Assembly: GCF_057098645.1 (NCBI RefSeq)
Contig: NZ_CM169472.1
DNA length: 64,000 bases
Strand: one strand, 5' to 3'
Part shown: piece by piece, positions 9,001 through 12,000 of the stretch
Layout: each line of letters starts with the position of its first letter
How positions within the stretch are numbered: the stretch's first letter is position 1
Made by a program: the position numbers

Positions 9001-12000
9001 TCTGGATTTTCTTAATAATGATTTATATAAAAATGATGGAGAGATTCTCTCTTATAAAGAATCAATAATGTTGTTTTGTGCTGTGTAGCCGAAAAATAGA
9101 TGATTCAGATTAACTACCGCACTCTATGTTGTGTTTATATCCATGTCAGGTAACAGGTCATTTGTGAATCCTGACACCAGACTATGACTATCGCCCAGGG
9201 ATAATCCACAACCGCTGGAAGTAGTCTCATTTCTGCAGGATAAAACCGTAGAGTGCGATTGCGATGAATAATAAATACAGGCTTATTATTCCAGTCTTTT
9301 TTATTGCGTTGGTTGATTCAAATGGCTCGGTTAGTAAAATGCACCATTCACTCGGAAAACTCAACATGTTGCACTCTTATACGCCGTATGGAAAAGACGT
9401 AGGAGTGGTATAACCATTTAATCGTCTCCCAACGTCAACGCTTACACATCAGCGACACTGGTTTAATTAAAACATACCAGATTTCTGATGAGTAAGCGTC
9501 TTTTCGTATAACCTCATTGTCACAGGAACAACTTGATCCGTTTATTTATTCGCCATGTTATGCTCAGAATTAATTTTCTTAATAGTTTCCACCATAACTT
9601 GATTTTCTTTTAGCCAACGACTGATACCTAGAATTACATCATTAAGTCTATTTTCTTGTTGAAACTTTATCTTGAATCTCTCTGTTTCAGAGGAAAGATC
9701 CCAGATTGCATTATCTATTTCTTCAATTTTTTTATCTATTTTCTTTATATCATTTTCGATTTTGACTTTTTCTTTTTCATCATTATCATTTAAATTAAGC
9801 ATCTTCTCATTAAAATAAACCTTTCTTTCTAGCTGAGCATCTCTTGCGCCAGAATGGTTGGCTAAATCTAGCAATTTATAAGTGAAATTTTCATTAATAT
9901 AATTATTATTTCTATCAACGACCCCCAATAAATATTGTTCAATGTCAAAGAATGAAGCAATTTCATGGGCTACATTTGCTGGTTTTTCTATATATTTCTC
10001 TTGGTTTATTTTTTCTTCTGCCTTAAAGTTTTTCACCGTTGAAAAAAGATTTTGCTTTTCCAAAAATTTCTCCTTTGTAGGCTTATTCTTATTCTCATAA
10101 TCGTAGTAAAGTACTTGCAAACCAGCAAAATCAAAGTAAAATCTATTACCATTTGGATTGGCAGTACGATATGTTTTTTCATTTCCATTTTCATCGTAAT
10201 GTCTATACCAATAAAGGTTATTATAGATTTTATGCATGAAATTCACTTTATCAGTATCTATTTCACTAGCTATATCTTTTTTTCTATTGTACAAAACATT
10301 ATCTATAATATATTTTATAGTTTCATCATTGAGTTGAAAATCTTTTACATCATCACCAGGCATAATGTTATGCAGATTAACTAATAAGGATTGTAAATCG
10401 GCTAGTGCCTTTTTGTAATTATTCTTCATATTATTGCTATATTTATAAATATCTTCTATCCGTGAATAAATATTCGTTACCTTTTCCATGAAAGGTAAAA
10501 TGTCTTTTTCAGCTATAGCTCCTCTATGGTACATATAAACAGGAATTTTAACCTGAGTGTTTGCAGCAAGATTACCACTTAAGATAGTGGTATGAGTATC
10601 AATAGCACAATTATACAATGGATTTCCACCGGTTAACTCGCCCAAACAAGCAGCATATAAACAGCAATGATTAAGATTTAAATGTTTATCTATATCGTCT
10701 TTTATATTATAATGAGTTTTAATATTTTGGAAAATATCATCGTGGATAAAATTTAAAAGAGCTTTATCCAGATTAAGTTTATTTTTATTTTCACTTTCTC
10801 CGAAATATTTTCTTGGATCATAATCTCGTAAATCTTCACGAATTCCATCTCGTTTGCATGTCATATTAACATAACGAAAATCACAATCATAAAAATTATT
10901 ACTATTTCTAAAACCACCGCGAGTTTTTCTATAAAACGAAGTTTCTATGAAATCCATTCCAACACCATTAAGCTTTGCTATATTGCAAGATAATAAACTG
11001 CTTGCAATAACACTTGCTTCTTTACACACTCCATCTTGAAGATTACTTGCATATACAAATGACTGCATAAACAGATATGCACCGACTTTCTTATCCCCTC
11101 TTTGGGGATCTTGATTTATAGAGTATATTTTTGATGTCTCTATCTTGAAATTTTTCATTTCGCATTGATACAAAAAACACCCTTTAAACATACCGTAAAT
11201 CGGTATTTTATTATTTGGTTTTACGTTACAAAGAACGTCATAGCTTTCACAGGTCACTTTATCAAAGCCAACAAGGGACACATTCTCGAAATTACATCCC
11301 TCAAAAAAACAATTTTCAAATACTGGGCCATTAAGATTTTCGTAAGATATATTACCTGTGAATGTCATCTTTTTAAAGCAACACTGTTTTAGCGATACCA
11401 GAACATCTTTTTTCAGTGCAGATAAATCAATTATCATATTTTCAAAGGGGATTTTATTTTTTAAATATACGCTTAGTTTTTCATTATCATTAGGGAACTG
11501 CATTTTCAATATCCCTGATTGAAAAGCCTTCTCATCAAAATGAATATCATGTTTATAACTATTATAATTGCGTTCTTCTGATAATACAGAACGCATTGTA
11601 TTTTCTTCAGCATTATTATGATTATCTTTCGAGTTAATATTTATTTTAAATACTCTACTAACAATAATGTCTTTATTCTCATCTACTGTAAATTCTGTCG
11701 TCGTACTAAAGCGCCATTTTTCTTCTCGAATAGCGAGATATTTAATTCTCTCAAATCTCTTAACTTTATCCTCAGTTTTCGTTACAAATTCTACAATTGT
11801 TTCTTTAGCCTCCTTAATATGATACATGGGAAAGAGATCGAGTATAAATTCCCAAAGAGTTAGTTTAAGAAAAGATTGTCTATCACCAGCTATAAGGTTT
11901 GTTATATCTTTATGGGTTATTGAATACTTCTCCTCATTACCAACAGACAAACAAAATTTTTCTGATTTTTTTTGCAATCCATTATTTTCATCTGGCATTT

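Follow-up and report, generated by a model that had tools for sequence, protein, structure and literature searches.

The question raised by positions 9089-9308 of a 64,000-nucleotide stretch of contig NZ_CM169472.1 (assembly GCF_057098645.1; the whole stretch is referred to here as the window) is what the 220-bp spacer directly downstream of the type III effector family gene espX3 represents. The spacer carries nested inverted repeats, and a preliminary description had placed three readings side by side, namely a small RNA, a miniature mobile-element relic, and a recombination scar. The last of these proved essentially right, as the spacer is the 5′ stump of cbrC (yieJ), which meets a yieH fragment at an illegitimate junction (9305-9311), and the interval 9089-9308 matches this stump almost exactly. 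The 220 bp are very probably functionless, non-coding cbrC debris at that junction. The window is an Escherichia coli O145:H28-type chromosome, and its positions 8900-9700 are 100% identical to O145:H28 chromosomes such as RM9872.

The sequence features that first drew attention to the spacer are present. The outer arms CGCACTCTA (9118-9126) and TAGAGTGCG (9249-9257) pair perfectly across an interval of 122 nt, and the inner hairpin arms TGTCAGG (9144-9150) and CCTGACA (9170-9176) were confirmed. The interval 9089-9308 contains no open reading frame (ORF) of at least 60 amino acids, only ORFs of 31-49 amino acids, and the upstream 395-amino acid ORF spans 7901-9088. The full intergenic gap is longer than 220 bp and comprises 9089-9541, with the next gene being convergent and ending at 9542.

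For comparison, four intact cbrC loci were aligned, from K-12, Escherichia sp. MOD1-EC7003, Escherichia sp. E1V33, and Pseudocitrobacter vendiensis. On the plus strand, the decayed upstream region at 9089-9163 is colinear with the cbrC upstream region of all four loci, holds the CGCACTCTA and TGTCAGG arms, and keeps 30 of the 55 bases at columns where the intact loci agree. It is followed on the same strand by codons 1-49 of the cbrC coding stump (9164-9311), identified by blastn, tblastn, Pfam, and alignment, which holds the CCTGACA and TAGAGTGCG arms. The start codon is GTG instead of ATG, three in-frame stops are found at codon 8 (9185-9187) and codons 36-37 (9269-9274), and the homology stops at codon 49 of 195. 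In a blastn search of 28 Gb of sequence, 9201-9311 matched nucleotides 38-148 of K-12 cbrC with 74.8% identity (E 3e-10), and tblastn aligned the stump with CbrC amino acids 14-49 at 61% identity over 36 amino acids, with two stops within the match (E 6e-11). The sole Pfam match, to PF03691 (E 0.015, profile positions 7-41), falls below the gathering score, which is unsurprising for a decayed piece of 36 amino acids. The gene order in K-12 is yieH(+), cbrB(+), cbrC(+), yieK(-), and then onward to bgl and phoU, and this exact site and orientation are therefore those expected of cbrC. The stump shares 65-69% identity with every one of the four intact cbrC genes, which are 84-94% identical to one another across genera; this places the stump on a long branch relative to intact cbrC, as would be anticipated for a pseudogene. 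When a closer donor of the stump was sought in 100,044 species genomes, four loci were returned, none more than 78% identical to the stump, and no donor can be named.

Several smaller observations concern the same segment. The ~75 nt upstream of cbrC (positions 5889-5963 of locus L002, with homologues in L013, L015, and L016) are highly conserved from E. coli to Pseudocitrobacter, and this leader doubles as the 3′ end of cbrB in K-12, with the other three loci having no cbrB. The comparison points to an insertion of cbrB into a conserved leader of cbrC or to its extension into that leader. A 49-amino acid chimeric ORF (9264-9413) begins out of frame in the cbrC stump and continues into a YieH-derived frame; it may match the "hypothetical protein" that the sampled genome TC_EC10 has annotated under the spacer. 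The ORF has lost its start in O157 and is shifted in frame in O169:H41, making it unlikely to be a gene. A tRNA/tmRNA scan returned nothing close to the spacer.

The other side of the junction is formed by yieH. At 9305-9311 (plus strand) the microhomology TGCGT(T)G is found, with the CbrC-frame match ending at 9310 and the YieH-frame match beginning at 9312. The alignments place TGCGT in both parental sequences at the junction point, which argues for illegitimate recombination at microhomology. The adjoining yieH′ relic (9312-9418, plus strand) is comprised of codons 106-128, a ~240-nt gap relative to yieH, and the last ~15 codons of the gene: 9312-9380 encodes VDSNGSVSKMHHSLGKLNMLHSY, which is 78% identical to amino acids 106-128 of the YieH encoded in the window (tblastn E 1.5e-7), and 9381-9418 aligns with the final yieH codons past the gap. 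It is followed by a second copy of the hairpin that lies 3′ of yieH, here called T2 (9419-9505, plus strand; arms 9438-9452 and 9485-9499). The source-like copy, at 3385-3804 on the same strand, consists of the 3′ part of the intact yieH gene (3054-3719) and the first hairpin, T1, and is homologous to 9328-9505. By blastn, 9328-9375 is 83% identical to 3385-3432, and the T2 region is 80.7% identical to 3717-3804. The fold energies are -31.2 kcal/mol for T1 and -25.8 kcal/mol for T2, which is then followed by TCTTTTCGT. Each of the two hairpins (3733-3795 and 9438-9499; 15-nt outer arms) lies between a plus-strand yieH or yieH′ and a convergent espY gene, and K-12, Escherichia sp. E1V33, and Pseudocitrobacter have no such hairpin downstream of yieH; it is probably a bidirectional terminator that belongs to the island.

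With the origin of the spacer in a gene, the status of the inverted repeats can be considered. Dinucleotide shuffling of the 220 bp yields a perfect inverted repeat of at least 9 nt in 9% of cases. In the 64-kb sequence itself, 12.6% of 220-nt windows hold at least one perfect 9-nt inverted repeat and 5.6% at least two, and inside the AT-rich island these values rise to 32% and 12%, respectively. The repeats are mildly unusual, not compelling, and as a special signal they do not go beyond chance. The RNAfold minimum free energy of segment 9110-9265, the bounds of which were set after the arms had been seen, is -49.6 kcal/mol, with z = -3.96 on the plus strand and -3.68 on the minus strand relative to shuffles; among 156-nt windows taken from the real sequence, it ranks only at the 1.6 percentile (GC-regressed) or the 3.5 percentile (GC-matched). 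Inverted repeats and good shuffle z-scores are common in AT-rich horizontally acquired DNA, which is a caution for sequence-only scans, and such scores should therefore be calibrated against real genomic background.

The arms could still be read as the ends of a miniature inverted-repeat transposable element (MITE) or another dispersed repeat of the enterobacterial repetitive intergenic consensus (ERIC) or repetitive extragenic palindromic (REP) type, since a perfect 9-nt terminal inverted repeat encloses ~140 bp, a MITE-like size. The copy number speaks otherwise: in a sensitive blastn search of the gap against 5426 complete E. coli genomes, full-length matches were obtained in 1089 genomes, one in each, and the 111-nt match of 74.8% identity found in ~3500 others is to cbrC (yieJ) itself, with no dispersed copies. 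No target-site duplication is visible in the sequences flanking the arms, TTAACTAC and ATTGCGAT. The right outer arm belongs to conserved coding sequence of cbrC and is unchanged in K-12 and three other species; together with the interior of the unit, it is colinear with cbrC in four other taxa, indicating that the unit was not inserted. Repeats of 9 nt of this kind are also frequent in windows of the AT-rich island. The spacer is almost certainly not such a relic. In plasmid and phage collections, the only matches were to chromosomes entered as plasmids, to cbrC itself, and to two Campylobacter phage records with an E. coli-like cbrC. These two records (MG065686.1 and MG065691.1) score against the query exactly as K-12 cbrC does, and probably reflect E. 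coli contamination.

Comparison with the intact genes and among strains shows how the pairing came about and where it breaks. The right outer arm (V-E-C codons) lies where the coding sequence of cbrC is best conserved; there, CAGGATAAAACCGTAGAGTGCGATTGC is identical in K-12 and invariant across the four intact loci except at the sixth base. The left outer arm aligns with GGGATGCTTTA in the intact loci, and pairing there would match at only 4 of 9 positions, so the outer pairing is not ancestral and arose by drift in the stump. Ten E. coli spacer variants (91-100% identical) were aligned, and the outer stem carries five single uncompensated changes among them: G to A in O157 and G to A in O169:H41 in the right arm, and G to A in CB6837 together with C to A and G to T in RMDEC465 in the left arm. 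The inner hairpin is broken in O157, where the arm reads TGTAAGG. For the structure as a whole, 14 of the 47 predicted pairs depart only by breakage and one compensatory change is seen, counts that lie within the range of shuffles, and the observed covariation score was reached by 83 of 500 shuffles. The minimum free energy of the homologous segment changes from -49.6 to -35.0 kcal/mol in O157, equal to the shuffle mean, and to about -39 kcal/mol in two other lineages. RMDEC465 has lost most of the element, with deletion of 9158-9225 and of everything from ~9312 into espY5, and its espX3 is still annotated as intact. The APEC37 spacer is ~90% identical, compared with 91% at espX3 third codon positions, with O157 and RMDEC465 deviating from this relation in opposite directions, probably as a result of mosaic recombination. 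A contig assigned to Collinsella was also compared; over 9089-9311 its spacer does not differ from the window, and it adds nothing as a divergent sequence. This contig (L014, JAIJJM010000244.1, from a "Collinsella sp." metagenome-assembled genome) is 4.4 kb long, carries an E. coli espX3, spacer, and espY5, and was probably mis-binned as Collinsella.

These data bear directly on the small RNA reading, taken here as an independent small regulatory RNA gene within 9110-9300, on either strand and with a multi-branch fold. The z-scores of the fold on both strands, a weak promoter-like site on the minus strand at 9149-9121, and a hairpin with a T run on the plus strand are the features that would fit such a gene. 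Promoter-like sites are not enriched, with 6 observed compared with 4.5 in shuffles, covariation is absent, the stability of the fold is lost in O157 and other lineages, and the sequence is demonstrably a decayed protein-coding gene. A scan of 8000-10500 with Rfam 15 at E values up to 10 gave only spurious eukaryotic snoRNA and miRNA matches far below gathering scores. The genes ECs4653-4657, the corresponding O157 Sakai numbers, are not mentioned in the supplements of the Hfq-crosslinking and RNase E-CLASH studies of enterohemorrhagic E. coli (Tree 2014, Waters 2016), and no mention of ECs4656 was found in the literature. No small RNA is recorded at the spacer, and an independent RNA gene is extremely unlikely.

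Passive or co-opted use as the espX3 3′ untranslated region (UTR) is the least unlikely of the functional readings. The stump would then have been co-opted as 3′ UTR and terminator, with its structure stabilizing the mRNA 3′ end or yielding a 3′ UTR-derived RNA, and espX3 transcripts would cross 9118-9257 and stop either at an AT-rich hairpin (9266-9302) or at T2 (9438-9505). No terminator is present from the espX3 stop codon to these two sites. The AT-rich hairpin (plus strand), with 9-bp arms GAATAATAA and TTATTATTC followed by a T run, lies inside the cbrC stump, and both the hairpin and its run of six T were created by substitutions in former coding sequence; T2 combines the stable fold given above with the TCTTTTCGT that follows it. 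Inducible transcription of ECs4654, ECs4655, and ECs4657 is known from O157 (PMC5931665), and the spacer region is therefore probably read through. On the other side, the AT-rich hairpin is a weak terminator-like site (-6.8 kcal/mol), being all A-T except for one pair, and its arms are mutated in O157, APEC37, and RMDEC465. The promoter/terminator scan called neither it nor any other plus-strand intrinsic terminator in 9089-9541. T2 has a good stem with a poor U run, and both sites are poorly conserved among the variants. Stem breaks in the large structure go uncompensated, and the structure is missing in RMDEC465 even though espX3 is annotated as intact there. Use of the stump as a co-opted 3′ UTR with termination at these sites is thus considered unlikely. 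The more specific case of a stump recruited as a structured espX3 3′ UTR or 3′ UTR-derived regulatory RNA, with a young lineage-specific fold that is strong in O145 and many phylogroup D strains and lost in O157, is regarded as highly unlikely.

Positions 12364-12450 (plus strand), beside phoU, align over 81 nt with Escherichia sp. E1V33 at 69% identity and would comprise the last ~30 nt of cbrC and the cbrC/phoU terminator hairpin; the alignment includes a hairpin, CAGCCCGGT...ACCGGGCTG, common to Escherichia sp. E1V33 and Pseudocitrobacter. This segment is probably the retained cbrC 3′ end and the counterpart of the 5′ stump. From 9312 to 12363, between one cbrC stump and the other, the sequence is colinear with 3385-7733, with these elements in common: the 3′ part of yieH, the hairpin, one espY paralogue, and a 25-nt motif. 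The N-terminal halves of espY4 and espY5 share ~69% DNA identity. The motif, (A)TGAATACTGTAAAAAAT(A/C)GCTCA, lies upstream of espY4 (7709-7733) and espY5 (12164-12188) with 96% identity between the copies and may be a shared regulatory site; it departs from the CTG-N10-CAG pattern of a LexA box.

Beyond the observed homology, synteny, frame disruption, single copy, and absence of covariation, we infer the following order of events as the simplest history. The ancestral order would have been yieH-cbrC-phoU, which is kept in Escherichia sp. E1V33 and Pseudocitrobacter vendiensis, and yieJ likewise adjoins phoU in E. albertii (Sankar et al. 2009, PMC2646131). The genes espY4 and espX3 would then have been placed between yieH and cbrC, after which a segment consisting of the yieH 3′ part, the hairpin, and espY5 would have been joined into the cbrC gene of a yieH-T-espY4-espX3-cbrC-phoU arrangement. 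This segment may stem from an ancient segmental duplication in situ, or it may be allelic DNA acquired from a diverged lineage. The join would have deleted the middle of cbrC, leaving the 5′ stump that is now the spacer and the 3′ stump beside phoU. The inverted repeats would have arisen incidentally in the decaying sequence, and any transcription of the stump would be passive, as part of the untranslated 3′ end of the espX3 message. The spacer and espX3 are always linked, 1094 of the 5426 genomes having each, and the pre-insertion haplotype, with espX3 followed by an intact cbrC, was not found in these genomes.

Several observations weigh against functionless debris with this history. Segment 9110-9265 folds more stably than all 200 of 200 shuffles on either strand, leaving formal room for a structural role, and the whole 453-nt gap folds with z = -3.4 relative to shuffles. 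The stump is retained in all sampled lineages except one. The parts retained in RMDEC465 are ~90% identical compared with 78% at espX3 third codon positions, an excess of conservation that mosaic recombination could explain. A GC-to-AT substitution bias is frequent in old pseudogenes, and the substitutions in the stump show none (14 compared with 14). The match of the cbrC 3′ stump is weak (E 0.008). Finally, EspY4 and EspY5 are only 32% identical, yet the yieH and hairpin copies are 81-83% identical, and a simple simultaneous in-situ duplication therefore fits poorly.

The wider locus places the stump in a known variable region. The annotated order in O145:H28 is adeP, yieH, a gene for an 802-amino acid protein, the gene for the 395-amino acid pentapeptide-repeat protein, a convergent "type III effector" pseudogene, phoU, and pstBAC. 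The spacer thus sits in the "Z locus" (Z5211-Z5214; espY4, espX3, espY5′), which stands between yieH and phoU in place of the bgl-yieIJ island. The Z locus was described as the type III arrangement at yieH-phoU, found mainly in phylogroup D/E-type strains and in 19% of the strains surveyed (Sankar et al. 2009, PLoS Genet, PMC2646131), and it is present in 1094 of the 5426 genomes analyzed here. The espX3 gene (7901-9088, plus strand) is an intact 395-amino acid pentapeptide-repeat gene of a type III effector family, as judged by its ORF call and Pfam pentapeptide matches, and carries the RefSeq product name "pentapeptide repeat-containing protein." The orthologue in O157 Sakai is split into ECs4654/4655 and is named EspX3′, and published tables list ECs4653 as EspY4 and ECs4657 as EspY5′ (PMC5931665). 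The 802-amino acid gene is annotated espY4 in O157:H7. The convergent espY5′ pseudogene (9542-12073, minus strand) is a type III effector paralogue of espY4, annotated by RefSeq as "type III effector protein, internal stop," with the 32% identity between EspY4 and EspY5 extending over ~800 amino acids (E 7e-109).

Within the window, espY4 is interrupted by a 1.33-kb IS2 copy at 4776-6104, which is 99.6% identical to K-12 IS2 and flanked by a 5-bp target duplication, TTTTG; this insertion is not in RM9872, whose espY4 is an intact 802-amino acid gene. The yieH segment linked to the Z locus (2890-3719) shows ~67-87% identity to K-12 yieH per 150-nt bin, ~80% overall, and the adjacent adeP is 96% identical to K-12, with a range of 95-98%. 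The break between the two levels is sharp, falls near 2890 between adeP and yieH, and indicates that yieH, which has deep allelic classes in E. coli, belongs to the exchanged haplotype. For espY5 (9542-11671) there are at least two allelic types, with ~76% DNA identity among E. coli strains whose espX3 genes are 95-97% identical, and on this allele divergence the Z locus appears to be a recombination mosaic.

Compared with known systems, the spacer most closely resembles cbrC/yieJ (PF03691, UPF0167), to which 9089-9311 is colinear over the upstream region and codons 1-49 with 65-75% DNA identity, in the same orientation and in the same neighborhood between yieH and phoU. In K-12, cbrC is a CreBC-regulated "colicin E2 tolerance" gene. 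The spacer copy differs in being truncated past codon 49, in having GTG for ATG and three in-frame stops, and in being far more diverged than the intact orthologues. It shares its yieH-phoU position with the alternative bgl and Z5211-Z5214 islands. In the description of these islands, yieI is absent from O157 and yieJ is listed only for K-12, S. flexneri, and E. albertii, and the text contains no occurrence of remnant, relic, duplicat, pseudogene, or truncat (Sankar et al. 2009, PMC2646131). The yieJ 5′ and 3′ stumps and the yieH fragment inside the Z locus go beyond that description, and the specific cbrC stump is not in this study, the one detailed study of the locus found. The history of the bgl/Z region can be refined in three respects: the Z-locus haplotype would once have had cbrC (yieJ) beside phoU, as in E. 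albertii, E1V33, and Pseudocitrobacter; espY5 would have been brought in by an illegitimate join in cbrC, along with part of yieH and the hairpin downstream of it; and the junction is fixed in all 1094 espX3-carrying E. coli genomes.

The spacer also shares properties with displaced fragments at genomic-island junctions, such as partial tRNA genes or gene 3′ ends, in that the yieH 3′ part and the hairpin are repeated inside the island, where 3385-3804 and 9328-9505 form an imperfect direct repeat. As a point of difference, no integrase, att site, or mobility gene is found, and the junction is a microhomology of 5-7 nt, indicating illegitimate rather than site-specific recombination. With MITEs and ERIC/REP elements the spacer has in common a size of ~140 bp, terminal inverted arms, and internal hairpins, from which it is set apart by being single-copy, by the lack of a target-site duplication, and by its gene-derived interior. 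An ordinary pseudogene fragment of this type has little meaning for biology at large and is useful for reconstructing E. coli island history. Gene stumps at island junctions are commonplace, and the spacer represents a small new detail among them and no new kind of element.

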